From NCBI GenBank assembly GCA_049698215.1, contig JBAVXH010000428.1:613-64612 (forward strand): 64,000 bases of DNA, read 5' to 3'. Source of the stretch: Xanthobacteraceae bacterium. GTDB lineage: Bacteria; Pseudomonadota; Alphaproteobacteria; Rhizobiales; Xanthobacteraceae. The position numbers and the translations under genes are program-made. Below, piece by piece: positions 9,767 through 29,037 of the stretch (the first letter of the stretch is position 1; each line of letters begins with the position of its first letter). The notes under the pieces were generated by a model. It made no database searches. It was not told where the DNA came from and saw only the letters and a list, made by a program, of their open reading frames with translations.

Positions 9767-9787
9767 GGAACTCCCAATCGTCCGCTG

Positions 9788-11107: not shown

Positions 11108-12354
11108 CAGGTCCCGCGCAGTTGAGCGCCGCGGCGCGCTTGCATTTGCAGCGGATCGACGGTTGCCGGCGCCGATATTGCGTCTGCCGCGGTCGCGCCC
11201 GGCCAGAACCAGCCGCTGTCGGCCAGCCACTTGGCACTCCTTTGAACTGCCTCGTGCGTGCGCGGATCGTCCGGGACGAGAAAGTCCTTGATCGGAACGT
11301 TGAGGCGGTTGAAATTCTCTCGCAGCAGAACGCGGCATTGGAAGGCCGCCGACTCGTTGCCGCCCTGCAGAAATGCATCCACAAGGACCAGCGGATTTGA
11401 AAGATCAAATAGCCACTTTTGATAACCCCAGGCGGCGGATCCATTTTCGAATTCAGGATCGAGATATTGCGCCGTTCCCACCAGATTCCGGCCCGTGCCG
11501 ACCGACAGCACCAGAATCTCGTCCAACACACTCCCGGGCGCAATGGCGCCCCCTCTCATATGGATGATCGTGCCGACAATGGCCGCCAGAGTGATCATTG
11601 ACGGGTTGTTCGCGACGAGGCCCCCATCGACGAAGCCGGATACGCCGGGCGTGCCATAAAAGGACTGGTAAATAGGCAGCTCCAGCGGCGCAGCGCTGGT
11701 GCGCATCGCCACATCCACAACGCTCTCATCCAGGTCGGGATTGGAAGCCGGACTTATGCCTCCGTGCGGCAAGCTCACCGTGTACGGCAAATTCGTATAG
11801 AGCTTGGGCGCCCAGCTGCGCAGGTCGCTGGATTGACTCGCGACCTGCTTATCCAACTGGAAGGTGACGACCACGACCGGGTACCGCGTCAGGTCTCCCA
11901 GCCGCATGTCACCAAAGCGCTGAAGCAGCAATGTTTTCATGGCGTCATTGAGGAACAGGGAACGAACCCCGAGTGCCGCCATGGACAGGCCGGCGGCAAT
12001 CCTGATCACGGTACCGAGGTCTGCCGAATTCCCTGTGTGCGCCGGCATTTGCGCCAGCGCCTCAGACGCGGCAGCCTGGCTTTGCTGTAACGAACGTTGC
12101 GCCTCCGCGGAGCTCAGTCCTTCGAGGATCGAGGCGTTGACCTGGCTCCAAAAGGCCTTGATCTCTCCCAACGCAACCGTTGGATCGCCCGATGCAGCAA
12201 GATACAGGGCGTTAATGCCTCCCGCCGAGGTGCCGGCAAAAACATTGGCCTTATCAAGAAAGTGCTTGTGTGCAACATTTTCCAGTTGGATCAGCAACTC
12301 TGCGGTATTCAGGCCGTTGCCGCCATCCATCGAAAGGATTCGATATTTGCCCAT
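11107..12354 (-). CDS. Patatin-like phospholipase
   Basis: ILSMDGGNG (oxyanion DGGG-like), GTSAGG (GxSxG nucleophile), VDGGLVANNP (catalytic Asp, DGG). A purine-rich SD-like stretch lies upstream; the gap to the NRPS stop is 18 bp. Confidence 0.8.
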   Translation of the reverse strand: MGKYRILSMDGGNGLNTAELLIQLENVAHKHFLDKANVFAGTSAGGINALYLAASGDPTVALGEIKAFWSQVNASILEGLSSAEAQRSLQQSQAAASEALAQMPAHTGNSADLGTVIRIAAGLSMAALGVRSLFLNDAMKTLLLQRFGDMRLGDLTRYPVVVVTFQLDKQVASQSSDLRSWAPKLYTNLPYTVSLPHGGISPASNPDLDESVVDVAMRTSAAPLELPIYQSFYGTPGVSGFVDGGLVANNPSMITLAAIVGTIIHMRGGAIAPGSVLDEILVLSVGTGRNLVGTAQYLDPEFENGSAAWGYQKWLFDLSNPLVLVDAFLQGGNESAAFQCRVLLRENFNRLNVPIKDFLVPDDPRTHEAVQRSAKWLADSGWFWPGATAADAISAPATVDPLQMQARRGAQLRGT

Positions 12355-15300: not shown

Positions 15301-16488
15301 TCGTGCGCCATCTCCCTTGAGCCCGAGAGATTGCACCACACGCTGAAACGGCACTTCCTGGTTCGCCTGAGCCCCCATGGCGACATCGCGAACGCGCGCC
15401 AGGACCGTGCGGAACGTCGGATCGCCGGAAAGATCGGTGCGCAGAATGATCGTATTGATGAAGACGCCAACGATGCCGTTGAGACTGCTCTGGGTGCGGT
15501 TCGTCGTCGGCAACCCCACCAGGATGTCGTCCTGGCCGGAGTAGCGCATCAGCACGATATTGAAGACCGCGAGAAGCGCCATGAAGAGTGTGGCGTTCGA
15601 CTCGCGCGCGAGGCGCTTGAGCCCGTCGATCGTATCCGCCGGACAACTGAATACTTCCCGTCCACCCGCGTGTGCGCGGTCATCGGAGATTTGGCGGTCG
15701 ACAGGCAGCTGCAGCGGACCATCTATCCCTTGGAGCCGTTCCTTCCAATACTCGAGCTGCCGCTCAAGAAGCGGCGCTGCGTCGGTGAAGTGTGTCTGCT
15801 CCCACAGCGCAAAATCAGCGTACTGGGCATCGACCGCACCAAGCTTGGGCTCGCGGCCTTCGAGAAGCGCCGCATAAGCTCCAAACAACTCCCTGAAGAA
15901 AATTCCGCCGGACCACCCATCGAAAATGATGTGGTGCATCGTGAAGAGCAGGCGGTATTGATCTTCGTCGAGCCTCCAGAGTGCAGCGCGGAAAAGCGGA
16001 CCTTTGTCCAACTGGAACGGCTCGCGGACCAGGACTTGCGCCTCGGCCTGATATTTCGCCACGCGCCGGCCCGCTGCCAGATCGCGCAGATCGCGTATGT
16101 CGAGTCGCGGTAGCGAACATGCGGCGACGCGCTGAAGCAAGCGGCCCTCTGCTGAGTGGAATGTGGTCGAGAAAATCTCGTGCCGCGCCATCACCAAATC
16201 AAAACTTTGCGCCAAGATCTCCGCGCGAACGCGGCCTTCCAGCTTCAGCGCGAACGTTTCGTTATAGAGCGGCTGATCGGGGCTCCATTGATGATTGAAC
16301 CACATCCGCTCCTGTGCAGCGGAAAGCGGAAACTCCCGGCGATTGTCGCGCGAGTGTGACGGGATCTTGTCGTTGGGAGAAATGGCGTCTGGCGATGCGT
16401 CCTGCAGCAGCCGGCGCGTCAGCAGCGCACGCTGCTGCGGTGAGAGCGCCGCAAGGCGCTTGGAGAGTGTGGCTGCTTCAGCCGGCAT
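12373..16488 (-). CDS. Non-ribosomal peptide synthetase, single terminal module C-A-T-TE (A-domain code reads Leu)
   Basis: C: HHIIFDGWS. A: YVIYTSGSTGQPKG, NNYGPTEATV, YRTGDL, GRADRQVQVHGCRVEL, LPRTTSGKTD. T: FFQIGGDSLSA. TE: GWSLGAP. N-terminal LSKRLAALSPQQRALLTRRLL docking-like helix. Confidence 0.95.
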   Translation of the reverse strand: MPAEAATLSKRLAALSPQQRALLTRRLLQDASPDAISPNDKIPSHSRDNRREFPLSAAQERMWFNHQWSPDQPLYNETFALKLEGRVRAEILAQSFDLVMARHEIFSTTFHSAEGRLLQRVAACSLPRLDIRDLRDLAAGRRVAKYQAEAQVLVREPFQLDKGPLFRAALWRLDEDQYRLLFTMHHIIFDGWSGGIFFRELFGAYAALLEGREPKLGAVDAQYADFALWEQTHFTDAAPLLERQLEYWKERLQGIDGPLQLPVDRQISDDRAHAGGREVFSCPADTIDGLKRLARESNATLFMALLAVFNIVLMRYSGQDDILVGLPTTNRTQSSLNGIVGVFINTIILRTDLSGDPTFRTVLARVRDVAMGAQANQEVPFQRVVQSLGLKGDGARSLARVLFDFQKKVDLFVETPGFTVRGAEVTNGMAKFDLVLAMEDSGDEIKGILDYDAEKYEAATAQQIARHFNTLMRSVAAAPDSPITLLPMLGDDELALVEASGLDTSDRQSVSACVATERFAQEAPQALALSDGVTQFTFGELSALATQVANFLSRRNVGRRQTVALFMPPGPALVAAQFGIMKAGAAFVPIDPTWPADRVAFLIRDSRAALTIVGDDQVNDIQASGETIRLSQVLNEAPKADSLSAPSTTEPDDPAYVIYTSGSTGQPKGVALSRSNLANLAVWHQRAFGVSPNDRASQMASVSFDASVWEIWANISAGASIHFPPRGLIADAARTRDWLVQRDITISFAPTLLAEELIELDWPASTKLRWLLTGGDRLRKHPKRDLAFRLVNNYGPTEATVVTTSGLVESAAQGGAPSIGRPIDNVWLRIVDRNLQPVPPGVWGELIVGGRAVGLGYWGSAESAAGGFATLPDGRRVYRTGDLCRIRRDGEIEFLGRADRQVQVHGCRVELSEIERTLLELPDIREAAVVPRESPDGRVSLAAYLVPAGGAAPKPEALRTYLAAKLPSYMLPSSFATIGQLPRTTSGKTDWKRLAEDAGAGGSRAAFCKPRTVTESRLVELWQQILRLSAVGVQDDFFQIGGDSLSATRLALRVRELFDIDLPLSRMVARPTIEALASFLDDAQQRTEKLPDEIVPLRSGRGMQPPLFLAPPASGSPACYAVWASAFEGDRAVYGLLSPGFSGGKVAASIPDQARAYLTAIYAVQSSGPYHIAGWSLGAPLAFEIACQLREAGKQVAYLGLVDGALPENGKLPGNISLLRGLWWAVTYPFSERMPLNYATVRQLANFLGIALPPSLLNVRQRGWRASAQFLGELVAGAGRSLRVFLANVRGLRSYQPRYFDGAVTLFRTQPPADVSEDALLNSMAKWCARVDMRDAPGTHMTLILDPQQATQFAPMFESTLEPKLKLVVVD
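12376..13191 (-). other. NRPS thioesterase domain (approximate bounds)
   Basis: GWSLG with Ser at aa 1176; a His lies near the C-terminus (APGTHMTL). Confidence 0.6.
13249..13461 (-). other. NRPS thiolation (PCP) domain (approximate bounds)
   Basis: GGDSL with Ser at aa 1044. Confidence 0.6.
13504..14931 (-). other. NRPS adenylation domain (approximate bounds)
   Basis: aa ~520-995; core motifs A3, A5, A7, A8 and A10 read directly. Confidence 0.6.
15019..16341 (-). other. NRPS condensation domain (approximate bounds)
   Basis: aa ~50-490; HHxxxDG at aa 185-191. Confidence 0.6.
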
Positions 16489-18310
16489 AGGCAGCGTCCG
16501 ATCGCATCGGCGCTCTTACGGCAGAGACCCGCACTTTATCGAGCGAGGCGACCGCCCACTCATCCACCGTCCGCAAGTCCTTCGGGTTGAACAGGCCCTC
16601 CTGCGCCCACGCGGCGGAATTCAAGGAGACGCTATAGGGATTCACCGGACCGCTCGGCGCACCCGGCAGATTGCGCGCGGCCTCCTGAAAAATCGCAACC
16701 GCAAGCGACTCGAGCAGCTTGAGGTTCTGCGAAAACCGTTCCGCGAGCGCATCGCCGGGAAGCGAATCTTTCAATTCGAAATGGAAGCGCCGCATGAGGT
16801 CGACGCCCAGCACGTCGATGAACCGCGACTCGACCTCCGGACAATCGAGCGCATCCCATTCGCGGAAGAGCGCCTGGATGCGGGCGTTGAGGTGATTGAC
16901 CCGTTGCAGATCCTGACCTGCGCGCGTCACCAGATCGAGATCGCATATGCGTCCGCCGATGAATTGAAGCGCAAGGAACCCCCAATAGATCAGGAAATCC
17001 CAGACGATCTTGATCGGCATCACGCGCGGATTTCCCATCAGCGCGTACTGATTTTCATACACGGTCAGGAAGGATTCAAACGTGTTGAGGTAGATGCGGT
17101 TATAGTCGGCCGCACGCGCGGTGATGTCCTCACCGTCCAGATCCCGCAGGATCAGATCGGCGAGATAGGTATTCCCCATTCCGATGAAGTCACTTCCCGG
17201 CGAATAGAACGGATCGGTGAATACGCCTGCCTCTCCGGTGAGCCCCCAGCGGTCCTTCGAGAACACGCGCGCGCAGCCGTACGCGTACCGCTTGACGGCA
17301 AGGAAATCCATCAGCTTGTCGCGGCGCTCCTCAACGACGCGCGCACACGCAGGCTCATATCGCCGCAACCAATCGAGTGCGCGCTCGAACGAGTTCATCC
17401 CCTTGAGCGGATGCAACTCCGCATCGGCGACGATTCCGACGCTGGTCACGTTGGGCGCGAGCGGAATGAACCAGACCCAGTAGCCGCGGCCCATGAAATG
17501 GTTGGTGCTGAAACGCCGCAGCCCCTTCTCGAGCCGGGAGTCCCATTCCGGTGTCGACCCGAACAGGTCGATATCGATGATGTCGCCGAGCCGGAACCAC
17601 ACGGAATTGCAGTTGTGACCGACCTCGCGAGCGAGGCCGAGTTGACGCTTGATCAGTCCGGCGCGGCCCGACGCATCCACGACCCAGCGCGAGGCGATCG
17701 TCACCGCTTCGCCGTCGCGCGTCAATGCCGTGTAATATTTCCTGTCGTCGCGCGTGACGCTTCGTGCCTTGGTGCGATCGCGGAAGTCGACGCCGAGCGT
17801 CCGGTTCTCTTCGGCCAGGAAGTTTTCCAGGCGGCCGCGGTCGAGCTGATACCCCGGAGTCGGCGGGTAGAATGATGCGCCCATTTCCACCCGGCGGGCG
17901 GTGTCCTGGTTGTCACCATGCGTGAAGAAGTAGCGCAATCCCGCCTTGAGGAGTTGCGCGGTGCGCAGGTGCGGTTCCAACCCCAACACCTGGGAGAAGT
18001 AGTGTCCGCCGATCTCGACGGACGATTCTCCGACCTTGTGGGCGGACTCGGGGAACGGATGCGGCCGTGATTCTGCGAGCAGAATGGAGACCGCGGGCCG
18101 CGCACGCTTGATCTGGCGGGCGAGCGTGTGTCCGGCCAGCCCTCCGCCCAGGATGACGAGATCGACCTCGGCGTCCGGAGCGACGTCCGACGTTCTGCGT
18201 TCGATTTCCGGTTCGCGGTTCTGCTCGCCGGTGCTCGCCTGCAATTTGCGCAGAAGCAGATCGCGCTGCTCCGCACTGAGCGCCGCAATTCGCTCTGAAA
18301 GGTCCGGCAT
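16478..18310 (-). CDS. Flavin-dependent halogenase (variant acting on carrier-tethered or phenolic substrates, CmlS/PltA/CndH-like)
   Basis: GxGxxG: VILGGGLAGHTL. WxWxIP: GYWVWFIPL (nt 17462-17479) followed by TSVGIV. FTDPFYSPGSDF second motif. HKVGESSVEIG Lys region. Start set at ATG 18308-18310 (MPDLSERIAALSAEQRDLLLRKL). The stop overlaps the NRPS start by 11 nt. Confidence 0.7.
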   Translation of the reverse strand: MPDLSERIAALSAEQRDLLLRKLQASTGEQNREPEIERRTSDVAPDAEVDLVILGGGLAGHTLARQIKRARPAVSILLAESRPHPFPESAHKVGESSVEIGGHYFSQVLGLEPHLRTAQLLKAGLRYFFTHGDNQDTARRVEMGASFYPPTPGYQLDRGRLENFLAEENRTLGVDFRDRTKARSVTRDDRKYYTALTRDGEAVTIASRWVVDASGRAGLIKRQLGLAREVGHNCNSVWFRLGDIIDIDLFGSTPEWDSRLEKGLRRFSTNHFMGRGYWVWFIPLAPNVTSVGIVADAELHPLKGMNSFERALDWLRRYEPACARVVEERRDKLMDFLAVKRYAYGCARVFSKDRWGLTGEAGVFTDPFYSPGSDFIGMGNTYLADLILRDLDGEDITARAADYNRIYLNTFESFLTVYENQYALMGNPRVMPIKIVWDFLIYWGFLALQFIGGRICDLDLVTRAGQDLQRVNHLNARIQALFREWDALDCPEVESRFIDVLGVDLMRRFHFELKDSLPGDALAERFSQNLKLLESLAVAIFQEAARNLPGAPSGPVNPYSVSLNSAAWAQEGLFNPKDLRTVDEWAVASLDKVRVSAVRAPMRSDAAYAG

Positions 18311-18314
18311 CGTC

Positions 18315-20141
18315 CTATGCTCCGCCGGCCATCGCCATGGCGTATTCCCGCTCGGGTTCGAGCCAGCATCGCCGCAGTTGTGTGCGGATTTCGGCACGCT
18401 CCGCGGCACGCGCCATATGTTCGGCGAGCGTGAAGCCGGAATCCGTCATTGGCTCTTTCGGCAGCACACCGAAAGCCTGGAGATGCATTTCGGCGGCGGT
18501 CGCCTCCAGCAGGCTGATGTTGTCCATCAGCTTGCGACGCAGCGCCGCGTCGTCGAAATTCCCTTCCATCTCGGAGTGAACCAGCGGGTAGACGAAATTG
18601 ACGCGCGTGAGATCGACGTGAGCGCGAGTATGAACTTGATGCTTGGTCGCTTCGTCCCAGCTGCGCAGGAAATCCTGCGTCTTGCGTTGCAGAACCTGGA
18701 TGTGGATCAGCTCCTGCCGGATCGACCGCAGAAATTCCTGATCGTCGATCTTGTTATGAAAGAAAATAAGACCGAGCGTCGCCCAATACCAGACGAGATC
18801 CCAGATGACCTTGGCGATCCAGACCTGAGCGTTGCCCAGAATGCCGTACTGATCCTGAAACACGCGGATCGCCGTGTCGTACAGGAAATCCAGATAGAAC
18901 CAGTTATAGAACTCGACCTTCTCCGTCAGGTCTCCGCCGGAGAGGTCATGGCGCACCATGTCGGTCACGAGGGTGTTGCCCATCGCGACGAAGTCGGATC
19001 CCGGCGAATAGAGCGGGTCGGTAAACAACCCCGCATCGCCGATCAACGCCCAACGGTCCTGCGAGTAGATCTGGCTCGTCGTGTGCGCGTATTTCTTCAG
19101 CGCCAGGAAATCCAGGATCCCGTCGCGGCGCTCGCGGACGAGGCGCCCGACCAGAGGCTCGTTCTTGTCGAGCCAGTCGATAAAACGGTCGCGGCTGTTG
19201 AACTCGTTGAGTGGATGGTAGCGCGGGTCCGCCACGATCCCAACGCTCGTCGAGCCCGACGCCAGGCGGATCAGCCACACCCAGTATCCGCGCCCCACAA
19301 GATGGTTGGTGGAATACTGCCGGAAACTGCTCAGCATGCGGCCACGGAATTCGGGATCGTCGCTCCAATCCTCCAGGTTGATGGGAACGGTGATCCTCAG
19401 CCATGCGGCATTCACATCGTGTTCCGACGGCCTGGCGAGGCCGAGCTTTCGGCGCAGGAAGCCCGGACGCCCCATGCCGTCGACGACCCATCGCGCCTTG
19501 ACGCGATGTTCCTGGCCACCGCGCCTCAGCTGAATTTCGTGCGGCGTGTCCCCTTGTTGAATATCGATGCCGATGACGCGGCAATCGTCGACGACGCCGG
19601 CGCCTTCCTTCGAGGCCTGCACGGCGAGCATGTTCTCGAAGCGGCCGCGATCGATCTGGTAGGTCGGAATCGGCAAGACATGGTTGGCAAAGGGTCCGAT
19701 CTCTACGCGCTTGGCCAGGTCGCTGTTATCGCCGTAGGGGAAGAAGAAGCGCAGCCCCATCTTGCGCAACTGACGCTGGTCCATGTGGGGGCGGAATCCG
19801 AGCACACTGTCGAAATAGTGTGCGCCGATCTCGACCGAGGATTCGCCGACCTTATGCGCGGCCTCCGGAACCGGAAACCGATTGGCCTCGACGACGAGGA
19901 TACGCGCCTGCGGAACGGCGCGGCGCAGCTGAATCGCCAGCGTCAGCCCCGCCAAGCCTCCACCCAGGATGGCGACATCATACTCATCCTGCAGCGTATG
20001 CTCGTCCGGCCGGGTTTCGCTCTCGTTGATTGTCGACGAGACATTGCGCTGCTCCGCGCTCTTGCTCACCAGCCGCGCGAGCAGCTCCCGCTTTCGGTCG
20101 TCGAGAGCATCAATGCGCTTGTTGATGTCGGTCATTCCCAC
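18315..20141 (-). CDS. Flavin-dependent halogenase paralogue (WxWxIP motif degenerate: WVWLIR)
   Basis: AILGGGLAGLTL, GYWVWLIRL (nt 19266-19283), FTDPLYSPGSDF, HKVGESSVEIG. GTG start 20139-20141 with AGGGA upstream (alternative ATG at 20133-20135). The 5' end overlaps the PKS 3' end by up to 32 nt. Confidence 0.65.
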   Translation of the reverse strand: MGMTDINKRIDALDDRKRELLARLVSKSAEQRNVSSTINESETRPDEHTLQDEYDVAILGGGLAGLTLAIQLRRAVPQARILVVEANRFPVPEAAHKVGESSVEIGAHYFDSVLGFRPHMDQRQLRKMGLRFFFPYGDNSDLAKRVEIGPFANHVLPIPTYQIDRGRFENMLAVQASKEGAGVVDDCRVIGIDIQQGDTPHEIQLRRGGQEHRVKARWVVDGMGRPGFLRRKLGLARPSEHDVNAAWLRITVPINLEDWSDDPEFRGRMLSSFRQYSTNHLVGRGYWVWLIRLASGSTSVGIVADPRYHPLNEFNSRDRFIDWLDKNEPLVGRLVRERRDGILDFLALKKYAHTTSQIYSQDRWALIGDAGLFTDPLYSPGSDFVAMGNTLVTDMVRHDLSGGDLTEKVEFYNWFYLDFLYDTAIRVFQDQYGILGNAQVWIAKVIWDLVWYWATLGLIFFHNKIDDQEFLRSIRQELIHIQVLQRKTQDFLRSWDEATKHQVHTRAHVDLTRVNFVYPLVHSEMEGNFDDAALRRKLMDNISLLEATAAEMHLQAFGVLPKEPMTDSGFTLAEHMARAAERAEIRTQLRRCWLEPEREYAMAMAGGA

Positions 20142-23100
20142 CCGTTCCCTGCAAGTGCGCCTCCAGCTCTTCCGGAGACATCTTCTCGACTTGAGCCAGC
20201 AGTTCCTCGACGTGTCCGTGATCGCCGAGCTTGAGCGCCAACTGCTCGGCCAGTTTGTCGACCGTCCCGGTGAAGAGATCGACCATCGGCACCGTGATGT
20301 TGATCGTCCGCTCGATCTCGGTTTTCAGCTCCACCACCATGATCGAGTCCATGCCCAGCGATGTGAGCGGCTCCCGCACATCGAGCCGTGCCGCTTCGAG
20401 GCCTAGAACACGCGCTGCCGCCTCGCGCAGATAGCTCTGCAGTCGCTGACGGCGCGGTTCAGGCTCGGCCAGCAGCAACTCAAGCAGGAGTTCGGACGCC
20501 GCCTTTTCTTCCTCGGCGGTCCGTTCTCGTGTGGCGCTTGCGGGCATCAATTCGGCAAAGAGCGGAGATGGCGGCATGCGCGCCCAGTCGGCGCTCACCA
20601 CGATCGCCTGAGCGGGTTGAGCGGCCTGGATGCGCTCCATCGCCTGCAACGCCTGTTCGGGCGTCATCGGGAACACGCCGGAGCGGCCGCTTTTGCTCTT
20701 CTCAGTCAGGCGGGCGAACATTCCGACATCGGCCCACGGACCCCAGTTGATGCTGGTAGCGGGCAGCCCTTGCGCGCGGCGCCACAGCGCGAGGTTGTCC
20801 ATGTAGGCGTTGCCGGCCGCGTAGTGTGCCTGCCCGAACTGTCCCAGCACCGAAGAGATCGACGAGAACAGCGTAAAGAAATCGAGCGCGAGGTCCTTGG
20901 TGGCTTCGTGCAAGGCGCGCGCCCCCGCCACCTTCGGTTTCAGCACACGCTGGAACGTCTCGTCATCGAGCCGCAGCAGAAGCTGGTCTTCCACGATGCC
21001 CGCAGCATGGATGACGCCGCGGATCGGCGGCAGGCCCTGGGCATGAAAGTCCTCGACGTAGGCTTCGACATCATCGGCGTCCGCAACATCGAACGTCGCG
21101 ACGTGTACCGACGCGCCGGCGCGCTCCAGATCCAGGATGGCATCCACCCTGCTCTTGGCCGGGTGATCCGCGGACAATGTCAGCCATTCGCGCCGCGGAG
21201 GAAGTGCGGCGCGGCCCGCGAGAATGAGACGGCGCGCACCGTGCGCGATCATCCATCGCGCGACGGTAACGCCCAGGCCGCCCAATCCGCCGGTGATGAG
21301 ATATGACGCGTCCGGCCGGAACACCGCCGGATCGACCGGCGGCGCCTGATCGGAAGCCCGCAACCGCGCCACGTAGCGCGCCTCGCCGCGTAGCGCGATC
21401 TGGCGGTCCGCACTGGGCGCCAGCAATTCTTCCGTCAACCGCTCGGCGTCACCTTCATCGACGGGTCCAAGATCAATGAGCCCGCCCCACAATTCCGGGT
21501 GCTCAAGGGCGACCACGCGGCCAAAGCCCCAGAGCTGCGACGCCCAGCTTGCGTCGACCGCTTCATTGCCTGCGGCCTGAAGCTGTCGTGTGACGATCCA
21601 GAGCTTCGGTGCATTTTCGAAGGTGGCGAGCCGCTTGACCCCATTCAACAGAAACGCGCAGGACGCATGCGCTTCGTCGGCCGAAGTATCAAGTCCGTGG
21701 AGATAGACGATCCCTGTTGTATCCGGGTTCGGCATCTCCGATCCCGCAAAGACCTCGGCTTGCAGGCCCCGCCGTTTCAGCACGGACGCGAGCGCACTGC
21801 AGAGATCGTCGCTGCCTCCGAAAATGGCCCATTTGCCGGTCTTGGCGTCGCTCGTCCCCTCCCGAGCGGCTTGCTCCCACCGCAGTTCATACATCCAATC
21901 GCGGACGGAGCCTCGCGCGACACCCTGAGTAGATTCAACATGCGCGAGGCGCAGCTCATCGATCTCCAGGCAAACCTGGCCGTCTTCGCTCACGATGCGA
22001 AGATCGAAGACCAACTCAGGGTCCTTGGGTGCCCCCGACTTCAGCTCTGCAATGCACAGAGCCCGGCCTCCGGGGTTAGCGGAAAAGCGGACGCGACCCA
22101 TTCCTTGAGGGAGGTATTGCTCCTCGTTGTAGATTTTGCCTTCGGATGGCTCCAGCGTGGCGGCGGCGGTCTGCAGCGCGGCATCGATCAGGATCGGATG
22201 CACGCAATAGTCCGGCGCCTCGGCAGCGGCAATTTCGTCGAGCGCGAGCTCCGACACCGCCCGGCCCCGGCTGCGCCAGATCTGCGAGATGGCGCGGAAG
22301 TGCTTGCCATAGTCGAGGCCCTGGGACGCCATCGCCTCGTAGTGCGCCGTGCCGGCGATGTGGTCAGTCAAGCCGAGGCGAAGTTCGTTGACGGCGAGCG
22401 ACGCGGCAGGAGCACGAACAGCAGCTGCGCGGCCGCTGGCCGTCGGCGTCCAATCCTCGGTGGAAGCCTGGCGGGCACTGAACTGAAAGCCGTAGCTTCC
22501 ATCGCCAGACGGCGAAAAGAGCGTCTGCAGCCGGCAGCCGGCTTCGGAAATCGGCAGCACTTCACGGAGATACAGCGTGGTGATCTCCGTCGCCGCCGCA
22601 TCCGGCCGCAGCTGACGCATCGCAGCCAGCGCGGCCGCGACATAACCTGCCGCCGGAAAGATCACCGAGCCGAGAACCTTGTGCCCCGACAGATAATAAG
22701 GAGAGTGCAGCGCGAGATGTTGCTCCCACACATGCTGTCCGCCCGGCAGCGCACATTCCAATGCCCGCCCGAGCAATGGACTGGCGCCTGCCGCGTCGGG
22801 TGCGACCTCATCGCCCGGAAGCTGATCGAGCCAATAGCGCTCGCGCAAAAACGGATAAGCCGGCAGGCTTGCGACGCTTCCGCGTGCGGGGAAGAGAGCG
22901 CGCCAATCGGGATTCTTGCCGCCCTTGTAAAGCTGCGCCACGGACGTGAGCAGTGCGCGGCCCGCCGCATCGCCCCGCTGCGCCGAACCAAGGACGAGCG
23001 CATCGCGACCCCTCTTGCCCAGCACCTCGCGGATCGGCCCGGCCAGCATCAGGTGCGGGCTGATTTCGAGAAATCCGTCGAAGCCCGCTTCAACCAGGCG

Positions 23101-25494
23101 GTCGAGCGCAGATGACAGCTGGAACGGCTCGCAAAGATTGCGTCCCCAATAGTCCGCACCGAGCCCTTCGCCGTTCACCCACGCGCCGGTGACCGTCGAC
23201 ATCAGGTCGACGCGGGCCTGGGTGTAGTCGAGCTGGCCTAGCGACGCCGCCAGTTCCTCACGCAGCGGCTCCATGTGAGGAGTGTGGAACGCGACGTCGA
23301 TATCCGACAGCGTCCGCACCAGCACGCCCTGCTGTTGGACGGCCGTCGACCACGCCGAGAGCGCCGACGGCTCTCCGGACACAACGCACGTCTCCGGGCC
23401 GCTGTGCCCGGCGAGGAAAATCTGGCCGTCCCAATCGGAGATCGACTCACGGGTCGGGTCAGGCGCGAGGCTGACGACGGCCGTCTTGCCTTGACCCGCA
23501 AGTCTCTTCATCAGCCGGCCGCGATGATGAACAACCGCCACCGCGCTCTCGAGGCTGAGGCCGCCAGCACAATAAGCAGCCGCCACCTCGCCCAGGCTCT
23601 GGCCAACGACGCCATCCGGCTCGATGCCGAATGAGCGCCATAGAGCGGCAAGCGCCACCTGCATCGAGAACACGGCCGCCTGAGAAACGTCGGTTTCGTT
23701 CAGCCGTTCTCCGGAACGGATCTCCTCGATGACCGACCGTCCGGAGCACTGCTCAAACAGACGATCGCAGGCCTGCAGGGTTTCGCGAAAGGCCGGGTAA
23801 TGATCGAATAGCGGGTCGCACATGCCCTTCCAGTGCGACCCCTGGCCCGAAAATACGAATGCCAGCTTGGAAATCGGCCGTGCGGCCGGCGCCTCGGCGC
23901 GTATGGCGTCGGCAAGTTCAGCCGCCGTGGATGCAACGGCGGCGGCGCGGTGCTGGTGGTGGCTTCTGCGTATCGCAGCCGTGAAGCAGATGTCGCGCGG
24001 GGCCGCGCCACCCGCAGCGGTCTTGAGCAGCCCGCTGTAGGATTCCTTCAAGCCCTGTAGCGCGTCGGGCGATTTCGCCGAAATCGGCAGAACGAAGACC
24101 TCCGGAACGGCCTGCACGGCGCGAGGCGGCGCGGAATCGGGTGCTTCTTCCAACACCAGGTGGGCGTTGGTCCCGCCGAAACTGAACCCACTGACGCCAC
24201 CCACGCGCCGCGAACCGTTGCGCTTCCAAGGTCGCGTCGCGACCGGGATCTCCATCGGGAAATCGACTTGCGGTACGCCCGATGTCCACGCTTCAAAATG
24301 GAAATTCGGCGGGATCGCATCGTAGTGCATCGCCAGCGCCATCTTGATGACGCCGGCAACGCCGGCTGCCGCTTCCATGTGGCCGAGATTGCTTTTCAGG
24401 GACCCGAGTACGAGATCCGTCGAACGCCCGTCACCGAGCGCCTGCGCGAGCGCACCGATCTCGATCGAGTCTCCCAGCGGCGTTCCCGTGCCATGCGTCT
24501 CGATGTACTGCGCCGCAGACGGCTCAATTCCGGCGTTCTTGTAGGCCTCGCGCAGAACTCGCTTCTGCGCCTCCCCGTTCGGCGCCATGATGCCGTTACT
24601 CGCGCCGTCGTGATTGATCGCGCCACCGCGGATAACCGCATAGATTCGATCGCCATCGTCCAACGCGTCGGCCATCCGCTTGAGGACGACGATGCCGGCG
24701 CCTTCGCTGCGCACGATGCCATCGGCCGCCGTATCGAAGCTATGGCAAGCCCCGGTGGGCGATAGCGCTCCCGCCGCCGAGAAGAAGACGTCTCCTTTGG
24801 GCAGCAGGTTGAGGCTGACGCCGCCGGCGAGCGCGAGCGATGTTTCTCCAGCGCGCAGGCTGCGGCACGCCAGTTCGATCGCCAGGAGTGAACCCGAGCA
24901 GGCCGTATCCAGCGTCAGGCTCGGACCATGCAGATCGAGAAAGTAGGAGATACGGTTGGCGATGATGCTGTTGGCGGTGCCCGGGCCCGTGGAGGCGCTG
25001 AAGCGGTTATAGTTCCGGCTCAGCATCAAGTCGTAATCGTTGCTGAGCGTGGCGACGTAGACGCCGGTGGCCGTGTTGGCGAGGCTGAGCGGCGGAATGC
25101 CCGCATCCTCCAGCGCATTCCAGGCGACTTCGAGCATCACCCGCTGGCGCGGATCGACGTGCGGCGCTTCGCGCGGCGAGATGCCGAAGAACGCCGGATC
25201 AAACCGGTCCAGCTCTTCGAGAAAGCCGCCCCAGCGCCCCGCGATCTTTCCAGGCGTACGTGCATCGGGATGAAAGAAGCGCGACGCGTCCCATCGTTCG
25301 GCCGGCACCTCACGCACACCGCTACGCTTCTCGCAGAGCAACTTCCAGAAGTCCTGCAAACCCGAAGCGCCCGGCAGGCGGCAATCCATGCCGACAATCG
25401 CGATGCTCGCATTCTCCCCGGCACGAAGGGATTCGATCTCGGCCCGCAGATCACGTAACGCGAAAAGTGCTCGTTCCAAAGGTGTGGATGTCAT
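20110..25494 (-). CDS. Type I polyketide synthase, one module KS-AT-DH-KR-ACP
   Basis: KS: IAIVGMDCRLPGA, DTACSGS (Cys199), HGTGT, NLGHMEAAAG. AT: GQSLGE (Ser633), VAFH. DH: HKVLGSVIFP, GLDYGKHF, DAALQ. KR: YLITGGLGGLG, HYAAGNAY. ACP: LGMDSI (Ser1717). Confidence 0.95.
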   Translation of the reverse strand: MTSTPLERALFALRDLRAEIESLRAGENASIAIVGMDCRLPGASGLQDFWKLLCEKRSGVREVPAERWDASRFFHPDARTPGKIAGRWGGFLEELDRFDPAFFGISPREAPHVDPRQRVMLEVAWNALEDAGIPPLSLANTATGVYVATLSNDYDLMLSRNYNRFSASTGPGTANSIIANRISYFLDLHGPSLTLDTACSGSLLAIELACRSLRAGETSLALAGGVSLNLLPKGDVFFSAAGALSPTGACHSFDTAADGIVRSEGAGIVVLKRMADALDDGDRIYAVIRGGAINHDGASNGIMAPNGEAQKRVLREAYKNAGIEPSAAQYIETHGTGTPLGDSIEIGALAQALGDGRSTDLVLGSLKSNLGHMEAAAGVAGVIKMALAMHYDAIPPNFHFEAWTSGVPQVDFPMEIPVATRPWKRNGSRRVGGVSGFSFGGTNAHLVLEEAPDSAPPRAVQAVPEVFVLPISAKSPDALQGLKESYSGLLKTAAGGAAPRDICFTAAIRRSHHQHRAAAVASTAAELADAIRAEAPAARPISKLAFVFSGQGSHWKGMCDPLFDHYPAFRETLQACDRLFEQCSGRSVIEEIRSGERLNETDVSQAAVFSMQVALAALWRSFGIEPDGVVGQSLGEVAAAYCAGGLSLESAVAVVHHRGRLMKRLAGQGKTAVVSLAPDPTRESISDWDGQIFLAGHSGPETCVVSGEPSALSAWSTAVQQQGVLVRTLSDIDVAFHTPHMEPLREELAASLGQLDYTQARVDLMSTVTGAWVNGEGLGADYWGRNLCEPFQLSSALDRLVEAGFDGFLEISPHLMLAGPIREVLGKRGRDALVLGSAQRGDAAGRALLTSVAQLYKGGKNPDWRALFPARGSVASLPAYPFLRERYWLDQLPGDEVAPDAAGASPLLGRALECALPGGQHVWEQHLALHSPYYLSGHKVLGSVIFPAAGYVAAALAAMRQLRPDAAATEITTLYLREVLPISEAGCRLQTLFSPSGDGSYGFQFSARQASTEDWTPTASGRAAAVRAPAASLAVNELRLGLTDHIAGTAHYEAMASQGLDYGKHFRAISQIWRSRGRAVSELALDEIAAAEAPDYCVHPILIDAALQTAAATLEPSEGKIYNEEQYLPQGMGRVRFSANPGGRALCIAELKSGAPKDPELVFDLRIVSEDGQVCLEIDELRLAHVESTQGVARGSVRDWMYELRWEQAAREGTSDAKTGKWAIFGGSDDLCSALASVLKRRGLQAEVFAGSEMPNPDTTGIVYLHGLDTSADEAHASCAFLLNGVKRLATFENAPKLWIVTRQLQAAGNEAVDASWASQLWGFGRVVALEHPELWGGLIDLGPVDEGDAERLTEELLAPSADRQIALRGEARYVARLRASDQAPPVDPAVFRPDASYLITGGLGGLGVTVARWMIAHGARRLILAGRAALPPRREWLTLSADHPAKSRVDAILDLERAGASVHVATFDVADADDVEAYVEDFHAQGLPPIRGVIHAAGIVEDQLLLRLDDETFQRVLKPKVAGARALHEATKDLALDFFTLFSSISSVLGQFGQAHYAAGNAYMDNLALWRRAQGLPATSINWGPWADVGMFARLTEKSKSGRSGVFPMTPEQALQAMERIQAAQPAQAIVVSADWARMPPSPLFAELMPASATRERTAEEEKAASELLLELLLAEPEPRRQRLQSYLREAAARVLGLEAARLDVREPLTSLGMDSIMVVELKTEIERTINITVPMVDLFTGTVDKLAEQLALKLGDHGHVEELLAQVEKMSPEELEAHLQGTGGNDRHQQAH
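20230..20442 (-). other. PKS ACP domain (approximate bounds)
   Basis: aa ~1685-1755; LGMDS. Followed by a 39-aa acidic helical tail (HVEELLAQVEKMSPEELEAHL). Confidence 0.55.
20725..21312 (-). other. PKS ketoreductase catalytic subdomain (approximate bounds)
   Basis: aa ~1395-1590; TGGLGGLG; catalytic Tyr1558. HAAGIVEDQ aligns with the LDD motif region, with the third Asp conserved (B-type-like). Confidence 0.55.
21940..22782 (-). other. PKS dehydratase domain (approximate bounds)
   Basis: aa ~905-1185; HxxxGxxxxP with His938; DxxxQ at aa 1104-1108. Confidence 0.55.
22885..23865 (-). other. PKS acyltransferase domain (approximate bounds)
   Basis: aa ~544-870; G-Q-S-L-G encoded at 23590-23604; xAFH motif (VAFH) suggests a malonyl-type extender. 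Confidence 0.55.
24145..25410 (-). other. PKS ketosynthase domain (approximate bounds)
   Basis: aa ~29-450; active-site Cys codon at 24898-24900. Confidence 0.6.
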
Positions 25495-25519
25495 TCTGAC
25501 GCTGTACCCTTAGCCTTCC

Positions 25520-27340
25520 TCACCGATTCACTCGGTTTAGTTCCGCGAGGACCAATGCCTCGGTTGCCTGATCCTTCGTCGCCAAGGTGCTGCTCGCCCC
25601 CTGGTCGTTTGGACCACTCGCAACGCAGCGCGCCATCGCGGTCGTGGTCGAATAGGTCCACGGAGCGGTTGGCTCCAAATCAATGCCGAGCCAAGCGTTC
25701 AGACTCTGGACGAGCAGCACAGCGCGCATCGAATCCAGACCGAGATCGGCCAACGCAATATCCGGGGAGTTCGTCGGCGGAGGCGTCTCCAGATTGTCGG
25801 CCAGCCAATCGAGAATCCAACGCTTCGCCGCCTCCTCGCTTACGTGCTTGCGCGTCCGGTTGAGCGTGCGATCCGCTGCTTGCTGACGCAGGACGCGCTT
25901 CAGGATCTTGCCCGTCGGACTCTTCGGTATCTCCTGCACGAAGCGAACGATGGCCGGCACCTTCACTTCCGCCATCCGCTGCCGGCAGTAGCGGCGAATC
26001 TCGTGTTCGGACGCCACGGCAGTTGGCCGCAGCACGATATCGGCGCGGACCTGCTCGCCAAGAAGCGGTTCGCGGATCCCGTAGACGGCAGCCTCGGCCA
26101 CCGCCGGATGAGAGTGAAGAACGTTCTCCACTTCGGCCGGATAGACGTTGACCCCGCCCAAGATGACCATATCCGAGAGGCGATCTTCGACATAGAAATA
26201 ACTATCGGCATCGCGCCTGCCGATATCGCCGGTGTGAAACCAGCCGCCGCGCATGACCAGTTCAGTTTCCTCGGGCCGGCCCCAATAGCCGAGCATCACA
26301 TTGTGCCCGCGCACGACGATCTCGCCCTTCTCCCCCTCGGCGCATTCCGCGCCGCTCGCGGGATCGAGGATTTTCATTTCCACGCCGTCGATGGGCACGC
26401 CGATGGAGCCCGGCCGGTGATCGGACAGGTGATTGTAGGAAGCGAAGGGAGAAGTTTCCGAAAGACCGTAGCCCTGGAAGATCGGCGCTCCGAACATCTC
26501 CTGCCAGGCGCTCTCGATTTCGAGCGGGAGCGGTGCCGCGGCGGAAAACCAGTACCTTACCCCCGCGACTTCCTTCAGCGGACGCCGGGCCAGCAGCACG
26601 ATGAAGTTGGCGGGCACGCCGAAAAACATCGTAACGCCGTGATCGGCGATGGAGCGCAGCACCTGTTCGAGATCGAACCGGCGGTGCAGCACGACCGCCG
26701 CGCCCGATTGCAGCATGGCGTTGAAAATCGCGTTCTGGCCGAAGCAGTGATAGAGCGGCAAAAACAGAATGCCGCGGTCGTCGGGACGAATGCCGAGATA
26801 ACGCTGCTTGGCTTCGATATTCCGGACGACGTTGGAGTGAGAGAGCACCGCGCCCTTTGGGCGGCCGGTGGTGCCGGATGTGTAAACGATCGCGGCGGGA
26901 TCATGCGGCTGCATAGCCCGCGCGCCCGAGAGCGGCTCTGCCGCCATCAAGGTCGCGGCGAACGCCTCATCGCAGACGTAGACATGCTCCACCGACGCTG
27001 CCGAGAGGTTCTCGCGCAACTCCGGCATGGTCACGACCGCGCGCGCCTCACAATTTTTCAGAACATAGTGGAGCTCGTCGTACTTCCATCCGGTGCTGAT
27101 GGAAACCGCAATCGCGCCAAGCTTGAGAATCCCCAAATAGGCGATCGCAAACTCAGGCACATTCGGCAGGTAGAGCGCGATGCGATCGCCCGCAGACAAG
27201 CCGTCCCGGGCGAAGAGGCCTGCCGCTTGCGACGATCGCTCGTTCAGCTCCTTGTAGGTCCAGGTTTGCCTCTCGAACACCAACGCGATGCGCTCCGGAT
27301 GAGCACCCGCGCCGCGTTCGATGTGTTCGGCAATGTTCAT
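25520..27340 (-). CDS. Acyl/aryl-acid adenylating enzyme (4CL/FadD-like ANL family) fused to a C-terminal carrier protein (loading didomain)
   Basis: IVYTSGTTGRPKGAVLSH, GYGLSETSP, WFHTGDIGRRD, GGVNVYPAEVE, PKSPTGKILK, then ACP-like ADLGLDSMRAVLLV. The ATG overlaps the lyase TGA (ATGA at 27337-27340). Confidence 0.85.
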   Translation of the reverse strand: MNIAEHIERGAGAHPERIALVFERQTWTYKELNERSSQAAGLFARDGLSAGDRIALYLPNVPEFAIAYLGILKLGAIAVSISTGWKYDELHYVLKNCEARAVVTMPELRENLSAASVEHVYVCDEAFAATLMAAEPLSGARAMQPHDPAAIVYTSGTTGRPKGAVLSHSNVVRNIEAKQRYLGIRPDDRGILFLPLYHCFGQNAIFNAMLQSGAAVVLHRRFDLEQVLRSIADHGVTMFFGVPANFIVLLARRPLKEVAGVRYWFSAAAPLPLEIESAWQEMFGAPIFQGYGLSETSPFASYNHLSDHRPGSIGVPIDGVEMKILDPASGAECAEGEKGEIVVRGHNVMLGYWGRPEETELVMRGGWFHTGDIGRRDADSYFYVEDRLSDMVILGGVNVYPAEVENVLHSHPAVAEAAVYGIREPLLGEQVRADIVLRPTAVASEHEIRRYCRQRMAEVKVPAIVRFVQEIPKSPTGKILKRVLRQQAADRTLNRTRKHVSEEAAKRWILDWLADNLETPPPTNSPDIALADLGLDSMRAVLLVQSLNAWLGIDLEPTAPWTYSTTTAMARCVASGPNDQGASSTLATKDQATEALVLAELNRVNR

Positions 27341-29037
27341 GCGTAGAACTCCCGCAGATCCGACAGCACGGGGCCGAACGACTGCGCGATTGGACCATCG
27401 CTCTCAAGATCCTCGACGATGGCGGAGATGTACTCGTCCAGCGACTGATCCCCGTCGTCCCAAACGTAGGGGCGCGCTCGCCCCGGTTTCACGCCGGTGA
27501 CCTGCTTAACCGCTTCATATGTCGTTCGTGTTGCATCGGAGAGCGTTTCGCGGGCGTCATAATGGTGGAATTGTGCAAACGTCCGCAGGTCGGCTGCCTG
27601 GACGCCGAAGATCAATCCCGCCGCCAGATAGAGGCGGAAGGTGTCGAGTGACTCGCGCGCGAGAACCGCCGAGCCCAGGCCCTGGCTGTTGACGTTCTGA
27701 TTGAACTGCTCGGCATGGGTCGGGAACCGGTCCGCGATCGAGTTTCCGAAGAATGACAGTCGCGGCGCCAAAGAATTCAGAGTGATCTGTAGCGCCTTAA
27801 GACCAGTGTTGACCGGCTGCTGCACGTTGCCGACCAGCGAGGGCGGGAGCCCATTGCTGAATTCCGGCGCGACCACGAGCGCAATCTGCGCGTCCAAATG
27901 CTTGGCCAGCATGCCGAGATGATAGCGCAGCTGGTCCATGCCGACGCCGATGTATTGCCCCAGAAAGTTGCCGCCGTGATAGGCAATGCCTGCTTCCGCA
28001 TCGATCAGCGGATTATCCGTCGCCGAGTTCCCCTCGACTTCGATCTGGGCCCCGATGGCGATCAGCCCGTCGACGATGGGCCCAAGAAATTGCGGCAAGC
28101 AGCGCAGCGAGTATCGGTCCTGAATAAGTTCACCGGGCGCACGGCCGCGATCGGTCCCGCTCCCGCGGACTAGTTTCGAGCCGTGCAGCAGTTGCAGCAT
28201 CTGTTGAGCGGCCCAGCGCTGGCCTGGATGTGGCTTGAGCCGATGCACGAACGGCGCAAAGGACTCGGTCGAGGCACGCAAGGCCTGTGCCAGGAGGGCG
28301 TGAAGGCACAACGTCCCGGCCAGGAATTTGTGTGTGTCAGAGATACAGTTGGCGGCGACGCCCGTCATCACCGAGGTACCGTTCATCATCGCCAGCGCTT
28401 CTTTCGCCTCCAGAGGAAGCGGCGAAAGGCCGAGGCGCTCGAGCGCGACCAGCGCGTCGATTTCCTCGCCATCGTCGTCGACGCGATAGCCCGGCGCGAG
28501 ACCACAGATCGCACCCGTGACGTAGGCGAGCGGCACTAGATCGCCGCTCGCGCCGATCGAGCCATGCGCCCGCACGCGCGGCGTAACGTTCTCGTTCAAA
28601 AAGAGGATCAGCCGTTCGATCAATTCCAGGCGAACGCCCGAGGCGCCCCAGAGCAGCGCATTGGCGCGCAACAGCATCGCGGCCCGGACGTCCTCGTTGC
28701 TGAGAAAATTCCCCGCGCCGGTCCGATGGGACAGCGGCAAATTGTTTTGCAGCGCGGCCGCCGAAGTGGATGGCACGGCGAGGTTGGCCATGCCGCCGAA
28801 CAGCGTCGTGATCCCGTAGATCGGCTGACCGCGGCGCACCGCGTCCTCAACGAAGGCGCGCGATGCAGCGATTCTGTTCAGAACGATGGGATCGTCGGTG
28901 AGCCTGACGCTGGACCGCTGGCGGGCGACGCGCAGCATGTCATCGAGCGACAAGCCCTGACCGCGCAGGACAACAGCCTCACGTTCGCCGCGAGACGGCC
29001 AGCGAGCAGCTTCTGCGTCCGAGGTGGCCACAGCCAT
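27337..29037 (-). CDS. MIO-dependent aromatic amino acid ammonia-lyase (or aminomutase), TAL/PAL/TAM clade
   Basis: MIO-forming triad in GSIGASGDLVPLAYV (Ala-Ser-Gly encoded at 28543-28551). Also YGITTLFGG, NGTS, PHPGQ, YSLRC, TDNPL, GGNFLGQ. Confidence 0.85.
   Translation of the reverse strand: MAVATSDAEAARWPSRGEREAVVLRGQGLSLDDMLRVARQRSSVRLTDDPIVLNRIAASRAFVEDAVRRGQPIYGITTLFGGMANLAVPSTSAAALQNNLPLSHRTGAGNFLSNEDVRAAMLLRANALLWGASGVRLELIERLILFLNENVTPRVRAHGSIGASGDLVPLAYVTGAICGLAPGYRVDDDGEEIDALVALERLGLSPLPLEAKEALAMMNGTSVMTGVAANCISDTHKFLAGTLCLHALLAQALRASTESFAPFVHRLKPHPGQRWAAQQMLQLLHGSKLVRGSGTDRGRAPGELIQDRYSLRCLPQFLGPIVDGLIAIGAQIEVEGNSATDNPLIDAEAGIAYHGGNFLGQYIGVGMDQLRYHLGMLAKHLDAQIALVVAPEFSNGLPPSLVGNVQQPVNTGLKALQITLNSLAPRLSFFGNSIADRFPTHAEQFNQNVNSQGLGSAVLARESLDTFRLYLAAGLIFGVQAADLRTFAQFHHYDARETLSDATRTTYEAVKQVTGVKPGRARPYVWDDGDQSLDEYISAIVEDLESDGPIAQSFGPVLSDLREFYA

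Follow-up and report, generated by a model that had tools for sequence, protein, structure and literature searches.

The engineering of assembly lines is held back in practice by the question of how a free-standing tailoring enzyme reaches the correct carrier protein at the correct step, and this question is raised directly by a biosynthetic locus in a 64,000-nt stretch of DNA from a Xanthobacteraceae bacterium (GenBank assembly GCA_049698215.1, contig JBAVXH010000428.1, positions 613 to 64,612), the whole of which is referred to here as the window. Two flavin-dependent halogenases, HalA and HalB, are encoded there between a polyketide synthase (PKS) subunit and an NRPS (non-ribosomal peptide synthetase) subunit, and both begin with a short peptide, here called the tag, which is also found at the start of the NRPS. 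An earlier reading of the window (the original prediction) proposed that this peptide brings the halogenases to the C-terminal tail of the PKS. Based on sequence comparison and structural models, the peptide common to HalA, HalB and the NRPS is probably an N-terminal docking domain, with the acidic tail of the PKS as its likeliest partner.

The three N-termini read MTDINKRIDALDDRKRELLARLV (HalA), MPDLSERIAALSAEQRDLLLRKLQ (HalB) and MPAEAATLSKRLAALSPQQRALLTRRLL (NRPS), and they share the pattern [LI]-x-x-R-[LI]-x-A-L-x-x-x-x-R-x-L-L. Against the window translated in six frames, a profile of the tag matched the N-termini of HalB, HalA and the NRPS at 39.3, 33.7 and 27.9 bits, respectively, with the next best match at 5.2 bits. 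A profile built from foreign halogenases only, without the sequences of the window, recovered the same proteins in the same order at 36.6, 25.4 and 20.1 bits (independent E = 1e-10, 3e-7 and 1.5e-5), and the next best match reached 5.1 bits. The related peptide on all three proteins is thus as first described, and the profile matches only these three N-termini in the window. Two details of that description require correction and leave the observation unaffected: the halogenases were numbered in reverse (its Halogenase 1, beginning LSERIAAL, is the second gene and its Halogenase 2 the first), and the open reading frame (ORF) used for HalB (16478..18409) starts 33 codons before the likely ATG at 18310. 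The DNA encoding the three tags is 48-65% identical, and a codon is shared at only about half of the identical residues, which argues against a recent local duplication. A recent duplication of the 5' end of the NRPS gene was considered as the source of the tag and is ruled out by this codon evidence. As judged from the sequences, the tag is an old, portable N-terminal module rather than a local duplication. The net charge of the three tags ranges from +1 to +5, and the AlphaFold2 model of HalB places one helix at residues 4-10 and, past a turn, another at 13-31, after which a linker extends to about residue 46 ahead of the Rossmann fold.

The proposed receiver of the tag follows the ACP of the PKS, whose C-terminus reads GDHGHVEELLAQVEKMSPEELEAHLQGTGGNDRHQQAH up to the stop codon. 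This tail is acidic and helical as originally described, with a net charge of -5 and two helices predicted by AlphaFold2 at residues 1761-1771 and 1774-1784 in a low-confidence single-sequence model; tails homologous to it occur in L002, L081, L082, L162 and L166-L168, loci that were recovered in the survey described below. Both tail and tag can be compared with the published type 2 docking class, in which two helices make up the C-terminal domain behind a carrier protein and conserved hydrophobic positions fall at i, i+3, i+8 and i+12, one on helix 1, one in the loop and two on helix 2 (PMC11221535). Its N-terminal partner is a V of two helices in which three conserved aliphatic residues occupy i, i+3 and i+11 (helix 1, turn and helix 2) and a basic residue lies on the second helix; the class is reported mainly outside actinomycetes, and monomeric 'type 2-related' versions exist in NRPSs such as Pax (PMC11221535, PMC9113145). 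The spacings of CurG/CurH, Bamb_5925/Bamb_5924 and PaxA/PaxB are reproduced here (CurK/CurL and PaxB/PaxC are also listed for comparison). In the PKS tail, V1769, M1772, L1777 and L1781 fall at i, i+3, i+8 and i+12, a spacing that recurs in 13 homologous tails, while the aliphatic residues of the tags fall at i, i+3 and i+11 in HalA (I8/L11/L19), HalB (I8/L11/L19) and the NRPS (L12/L15/L23). An acidic two-helix tail and a two-helix N-terminal partner with a basic second helix are likewise predicted for this locus. The resemblance has a limit in canonical CurH, where the second helix continues as a dimeric coiled coil into the KS, whereas here it ends at about residue 31 and gives way to a linker leading to the halogenase or the C domain; in lacking the coiled coil, the tag is closer to the monomeric 'type 2-related' domains of the PaxB kind than to canonical CurH. 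At the level of pattern only, therefore, tag and tail appear to work like a type 2-related docking pair. The original premise that LSxxxRxLL-type helices are established docking elements has indirect backing only, from the agreement of the motif with the residue pattern published for type 2, and no experiment on this exact motif was found in the literature.

HalA and HalB both score above the cut-off of Pfam Trp_halogenase and both contain GGGLAG and AHKVGE. HalB has the canonical WVWFIP, whereas HalA has WVWLIR, in which R replaces the P of the usual WxWxIP. The HalB model has a mean predicted local distance difference test score (pLDDT) of 92.9, and its best Foldseek matches are CtcP, PltM, CmlS, PltA and CndH (E 1e-21 to 1e-25). 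By the GxGxxG FAD motif, WxWxIP (with the HalA variant), the conserved active-site lysine and the fold, both proteins qualify as flavin-dependent halogenases, and NCBIfam returned no family above cut-off for either.

The distribution of the tag among related proteins bears out its portability. Among the 120 closest HalB relatives, some of which come from metagenome-assembled genomes (MAGs) placed in Chloroflexota, Acidobacteriota and Deltaproteobacteria, about 86 have the tag, 40-55 residues ahead of GGGLAG; about 30 full-length relatives do not, and these start 5-20 residues before GGGLAG. In a similarity tree of the catalytic domains the tagless proteins are scattered among the tagged ones, four of them with a tagged nearest neighbour, and such patchy presence is as expected of a module that was repeatedly gained or lost. 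Across an alignment of 38 tags the second and third aliphatic positions are nearly invariant, and the first is aliphatic in the listed tags. Searching 1.84 billion representative proteins with the tag profile gave 180 matches at E <= 0.001. The motif begins within the first 10 residues in 129 of the 150 best representatives, and the first recognisable domain among these 150 is C in 72, KS in seven, a halogenase in five, A in two and a thioesterase in one, the rest being 51 short fragments and 12 others that include three methyltransferases and a reductase-condensation protein. Judging from these matches, the tag is a common head of synthase subunits that is also placed on stand-alone enzymes.

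Genomic context connects the tagged halogenases with assembly lines. The surveyed loci (80 from reference genomes, 80 from metagenomes and eight around tagged halogenases of diverse lineages) were annotated by means of the tag profile and of domain queries taken from the window; tag scores were bimodal (>=15 bits or <=9.5 bits), and context was counted for halogenase genes flanked by at least 8 kb in total. A type I PKS/NRPS was present in the locus of all 27 tagged halogenase genes and of 25 of the 114 untagged ones (Fisher 7e-15), and a carrier protein with a C-terminal tail of 20-80 residues in 21 of the 27 compared to 2 of the 114; these counts include related genes, which are not independent events, and the p-values overstate independence, but the direction of the association between tag and type I synthase in these sequences is unambiguous. 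Tagged homologues in the absence of a partner synthase, which the original prediction had named as evidence against docking, were not observed; all 27 tagged genes lie beside a type I PKS/NRPS. A PKS/NRPS cluster also surrounds each of the eight tagged halogenases picked from diverse lineages.

The untagged relatives present a different picture. At least 599 halogenase relatives were found in the genome scan, many of them from Variovorax, Xanthomonas and Bacteroidota, and most untagged relatives lie in a locus without a type I megasynthase. The untagged loci of Variovorax, Xanthomonas and Bacteroidota contain a stand-alone KS gene, in four Bacteroidota loci along with an ammonia-lyase gene, and the carrier proteins of loci of this type end without a tail. 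The neighbouring genes and the organisms suggest that these are aryl-polyene-type pigment clusters (xanthomonadin, flexirubin). Halogenases of such putative pigment clusters and the phenolic or carrier-dependent halogenases CtcP, PltM, CmlS, CndH and PltA belong to the same family and fold as HalA and HalB, but the aryl-polyene-type relatives, unlike HalA and HalB, start 5-20 residues before GGGLAG, have no tag and occur in loci without a tailed carrier.

Relatives of the cluster also separate the tag from any fixed gene order and, in some cases, the tail from any downstream module. Tagged halogenase genes precede the PKS in L083 and L163-L165 and flank it on both sides in L166-L168, so the order PKS-Hal-Hal-NRPS, to which the original prediction appealed, is not conserved and lends it no support. 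The PKS of L166-L168 contains the loading carrier as a fused domain, the sole tail seen is that of its terminal ACP, and the tag occurs on two to three halogenases and on the NRPS. A second cluster type (L012, L020, L087, L107, L019 and L024), hosted by Ktedonobacteraceae, Streptomyces albipurpureus, Kribbella and metagenomes, has the gene order Hal(tag)-Hal-Hal-(Hal)-thioesterase(tag)-PKS, with one KS-AT-DH-KR-ACP PKS. The tag is borne there by a free-standing thioesterase of about 305 residues (an example starts MKNVTERIAALSPDKQMRLLQRLK), and the arrangement points to a polyhalogenated product of an iterative PKS. The member from Kribbella antibiotica (L024) consists of a TetR regulator, an acyl-CoA carboxylase, a tagged halogenase, two further halogenases and a weakly tagged thioesterase, followed by a PKS whose C-terminal end includes DDELDQLLASASPDELEALLAELEREEGM, two DUF1702 proteins and a transporter. 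In a further locus (L173), a single-module PKS that ends in LIEQLSDEEVKQLLAELKPSP at its stop codon is followed by a tagged methyltransferase (MANLSNRIAELSPEKRELLHRLL) and then by a tagged thioesterase (ITQRIQNLTPEKRQLLERLL). No synthase was found downstream of the tailed PKS within the locus DNA examined for L024 or L173. Given these tailed PKSs without a downstream module, and the tags of L166-L168, tailoring enzymes must be among the partners of the tail in these clusters if it has a partner at all. Along with the counts above and the portability of the tag, such lone tails provide good contextual support for the originally proposed recruitment of the halogenases to the PKS tail.

From these observations we infer physical binding, the tail that is bound, the substrate and the timing. 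The tag of 20-25 residues would consist of two helices, the first of them short, on either side of a turn that is often S-P, and a flexible linker of about 15-25 residues would lead on to the enzyme. The acidic two-helix tail after the PKS ACP would most likely receive the tag. The PKS, presumably dimeric like other such subunits, would offer two tails, which the three basic tags would compete for or share. Both halogenases and the condensation domain could then be held near the aryl-polyketide on its carrier. The halogenases would modify a thioester-tethered intermediate, probably on the phenolic ring derived from the ammonia-lyase product loaded by the A-T protein, before the NRPS condenses the acyl chain with an amino acid and releases the product. 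It does not follow, as was originally proposed, that halogenation takes place on the extended chain bound to the PKS ACP. A second tail is present on the A-T loader, and a halogenase docked at the PKS tail could also reach a starter unit or other carriers, such that docking at this tail does not fix the substrate.

It should be noted that several observations weigh against docking at the PKS tail, in addition to the relatedness of the counted genes. Confidence in the model of the PKS tail is low (pLDDT 58.5). Some Planctomycete type I PKS loci have untagged halogenases and untailed carriers, and in the second cluster type the tag is present only on the first of 3-4 tandem halogenases, which indicates that some carrier-dependent relatives do without it. 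The tags of one cluster resemble one another barely more than they resemble those of other clusters (permutation p = 0.054), so nothing points to a cluster-specific code. PDB searches with profiles of 38 tags and of 14 tails and with the single tail sequence, short queries that have little power, matched no solved docking domain at E <= 10 and returned designed helical proteins or chance matches instead (the solved type 2 members used for comparison are 4MYY, 4MYZ, 6TDN, 7B2B and 6TRP). Combined with the lack of the canonical coiled coil, this is why membership in the type 2 family is not claimed beyond the pattern. Lastly, a similar motif occurs in multiple copies in membrane proteins (see below), and the motif of the tag may be a more general helical unit that is not exclusive to docking.

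The tags could instead dock elsewhere, either at the tail of the loader, which would place halogenation of the starter aryl acid ahead of extension, or with one another, with HalA, HalB and the NRPS bundled into a complex that meets the carrier protein through contacts of the catalytic domains. There are two tailed carrier proteins in the window, and the loader and PKS tails have, by eye, the same hydrophobic spacing. Halogenation of a carrier-bound starter is common among related halogenases, such as SgcC3 and PltA, and the single tag among 3-4 tandem halogenases fits a tagged subunit that brings untagged partners along. This alternative is nonetheless unlikely. The PKS tail is favoured by charge, as it is acidic (-5) and the tags are basic (+1 to +5), whereas the loader tail and the KS head of the PKS are neutral. 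It is also favoured by resemblance, as the halogenase tags match the tag of the NRPS rather than the KS-type head; among the tagged loci, no N-terminus of a KS scores >=10 bits with the tag profile. Further, the halogenases of L166-L168 are tagged even though the loading carrier there sits inside the PKS without a tail. For their part, the loader tail and the KS-type head of the PKS apparently constitute a second, neutral docking pair (25423-25576), as read from their sequences; both elements are conserved in L002 and L081.

A different kind of explanation would deny the tag a docking role and regard it as a generic amphipathic helix-turn-helix, common and easily evolved, that contributes to folding, solubility, self-association or a contact with a membrane or partner that does not involve carrier proteins. 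This would be in keeping with the lack of a sequence match to any solved docking domain, with the designed helical repeat proteins that were the best PDB matches of the tag profile, with the 4-7 copies of a similar motif in membrane proteins outside visible PKS contexts and with the only moderate pLDDT of the HalB tag in the AlphaFold2 model (59-83). A generic helix is, however, difficult to reconcile with a position that is strictly N-terminal (129 of 150), with recognisable bearers that are mostly PKS/NRPS subunits or their tailoring enzymes, with the full association with type I synthases and tailed carriers, or with the absence of the tag from many relatives in loci without a type I megasynthase, and we regard it as improbable. 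The tight gene packing with overlapping junctions, and the 59% identity of HalB and the NRPS over the motif, could also be taken to mean that the halogenase genes were inserted between the PKS and the NRPS together with a copied NRPS 5' end, and that the tag is a functionless leftover of recombination. The divergence of the three motif DNAs and their differing codons for the same residues contradict this, as do halogenases of several unrelated bacteria (Acidobacteriota, Chloroflexota, Deltaproteobacteria, Streptomyces and Kribbella), from MAGs and cultured strains alike, which keep the tag in any gene order. Elsewhere, the orthologues of HalA and HalB each retain their own tag variant, and a leftover of this kind is very hard to credit.

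The probable docking of HalA, HalB and the NRPS at the PKS tail would have precedents in both of its main elements: the SLiM/β-hairpin class recruits stand-alone enzymes by way of docking domains, and one tail is used by several partners elsewhere. According to PMC9113145, which summarises Kosol 2019, β-hairpin docking domains that recognise short linear motifs (SLiMs) stand before C, E, Cy, TE and MT domains, before reductases and before halogenases, and a single motif is able to recruit several partners. In light of that summary, docking-equipped halogenases are less unusual than originally supposed. The logic of this class (type 3; enacyloxin Bamb_5915/5917) is the same as proposed here, in that a short element after the carrier recruits enzymes via a small N-terminal domain borne on a linker. 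The β-hairpin domain itself differs, being an α-β-β-α-α fold of about 50-60 residues that binds an extended peptide, while both partners here are predicted to be purely helical; a β-hairpin docking domain was ruled out because two helices but no hairpin precede the Rossmann fold in the HalB model. COM domains join NRPS subunits by means of a donor helix located behind an epimerisation domain and an N-terminal acceptor on a C domain. This type was also ruled out, since the upstream partner here is a PKS ACP and the cluster is without an epimerisation domain.

For a shared tail, the closest parallels are the vatiamide pathway, in which one C-terminal docking domain serves several downstream partners (Moss et al. 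2019, as cited in PMC10127204), and CurK, which binds CurH and CurM (PMC9113145). In these systems, as proposed here, one upstream tail meets several N-terminally tagged partners; the partners there, though, are alternative extension modules that lead to alternative products, whereas here tailoring enzymes and the next module would act in sequence. The tag further resembles the type 2 class in that it stands directly before the KS in some PKS subunits. Relative to that class, it is found not on the next module alone but here on free-standing halogenases and elsewhere on thioesterases and methyltransferases, and several tagged proteins would share one tail. No description of a helical type-2-like tag on free-standing halogenases, thioesterases or methyltransferases was found in the searchable literature, outside of which lie key subscription papers, and a full-text search for motif strings (LSPEKR and similar) returned nothing relevant.

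Should the tag act as proposed, the type 2 docking class would be extended from links between modules to links between enzyme and carrier. If sufficient for recruitment, a tag of 25 residues and a tail of about 25 residues would make a very small portable handle, by which halogenases, methyltransferases or thioesterases could be brought to a chosen module. The tag would also be a marker for genome mining that splits carrier-dependent tailoring enzymes bound to type I assembly lines from their free or type II relatives. More tentatively, and with somewhat less confidence than an even chance would warrant, one type-2-like carrier tail could be a general hub for any tagged enzyme, recruiting a halogenase, methyltransferase, thioesterase, reductase or the next module through a 25-residue tag. 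The gain and loss of tags would then be enough to reprogram pathways in evolution, and membrane proteins with multiple tags could be scaffolds that collect tailed synthases at the membrane.

The membrane proteins in question are six sequences of 635-860 aa (P0121-P0125 and P0129) with 4-7 tandem copies of LSPxKRALLExRL at a spacing of about 40 residues. Behind the repeats come a disordered stretch and a transmembrane helix, then a domain of about 250 residues without a Pfam match and a second transmembrane helix. No PKS was seen near the genes for P0124 and P0121 on the short contigs available (loci L169-L171), where they adjoin a MutL-family gene and genes of unknown function.

The features of the locus are collected in Table 1.

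Table 1. Genes, tags and candidate docking elements of the locus, in window coordinates.
Feature	Position	Strand	Basis
Aromatic amino acid ammonia-lyase or aminomutase, MIO family	27337..29037	minus	Pfam domains, NCBIfam
Loader: acyl-CoA-ligase-type adenylation enzyme fused to carrier protein	25520..27340	minus	Pfam domains
Short C-terminal tail of the loader, KDQATEALVLAELNRVNR then stop, net charge 0	25523-25576	minus	
N-terminal KS-type candidate docking helix of the PKS, TPLERALFALRDLRAEIESLR, net charge 0	25423..25485	minus	
PKS subunit KS-AT-DH-KR-ACP, 1794 aa	20110..25494	minus	Pfam domains, translation
Candidate docking tail at the PKS C-terminus, behind the ACP, HVEELLAQVEKMSPEELEAHLQG, residues 1761-1783	20146..20214	minus	Translation, charge, AlphaFold2
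HalA, flavin-dependent halogenase, 606 aa	18315..20135 (ATG at 20135)	minus	Pfam, motifs
HalA tag, INKRIDALDDRKRELLARLV, residues 4-23	20067..20126	minus	33.7 bits; leave-out profile 25.4 bits
HalB, flavin-dependent halogenase, 610 aa	16478..18310 (ATG at 18310)	minus	Pfam, motifs, AlphaFold2, Foldseek
HalB tag, LSERIAALSAEQRDLLLRKLQ, residues 4-24	18239..18301	minus	Profile, AlphaFold2
NRPS subunit C-A-T-TE, 1371 aa	12373..16488	minus	Pfam domains
NRPS tag, LSKRLAALSPQQRALLTRRLL, residues 8-28	16405..16467	minus	27.9 bits; foreign-halogenase-tag profile 20.1 bits
Patatin-like protein, 3' of the NRPS	11107-12354		

The operon on the minus strand runs from the lyase through the loader, PKS, HalA, HalB, NRPS and patatin-like protein to a glycosyltransferase and two ABC1-type kinases, and the MIO-family lyase or aminomutase presumably supplies the aryl starter acid. 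The 5' end of HalA overlaps the 3' end of the PKS gene by 26 nt (20110-20135), with the HalA ATG inside the PKS gene; the last eight codons and the stop of the PKS read, in another frame, as the first eight codons of HalA. One stretch of DNA consequently encodes both the end of the disordered extension of the tail and the start of the tag. The HalB ATG lies 4 nt past the HalA stop, which is overlapped by an AGGA, and the NRPS start lies 11 nt inside the 3' end of HalB. Our guess at the product of the cluster is a halogenated aryl-dienoyl amino acid, possibly linked to a lipid or sugar.

The whole cluster (window positions 1117-29037) was found again in L002, L081, L082, L161 and L162, and the MAGs bearing it are assigned to Xanthobacteraceae, Acidobacteriaceae and Deltaproteobacteria, which suggests horizontal transfer or binning errors. 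The recurring set consists of the lyase, ligase-carrier protein, PKS, halogenases, NRPS-TE and patatin-like protein, and the glycosyltransferase and an ABC1 kinase are shared by the window and L161. The gene for the patatin-like protein is likewise 3' of the NRPS in L161 and L162, and the protein scores 86 bits with the model for the CBASS cGAMP-activated phospholipase, below the curated cut-off of 200. In the second cluster type, the second halogenase of Kribbella antibiotica JCM 13523 (L024, 9034-10720) is represented by two overlapping ORFs (9037-10296 and 10043-10720), the result of either a frameshift or a sequencing error.

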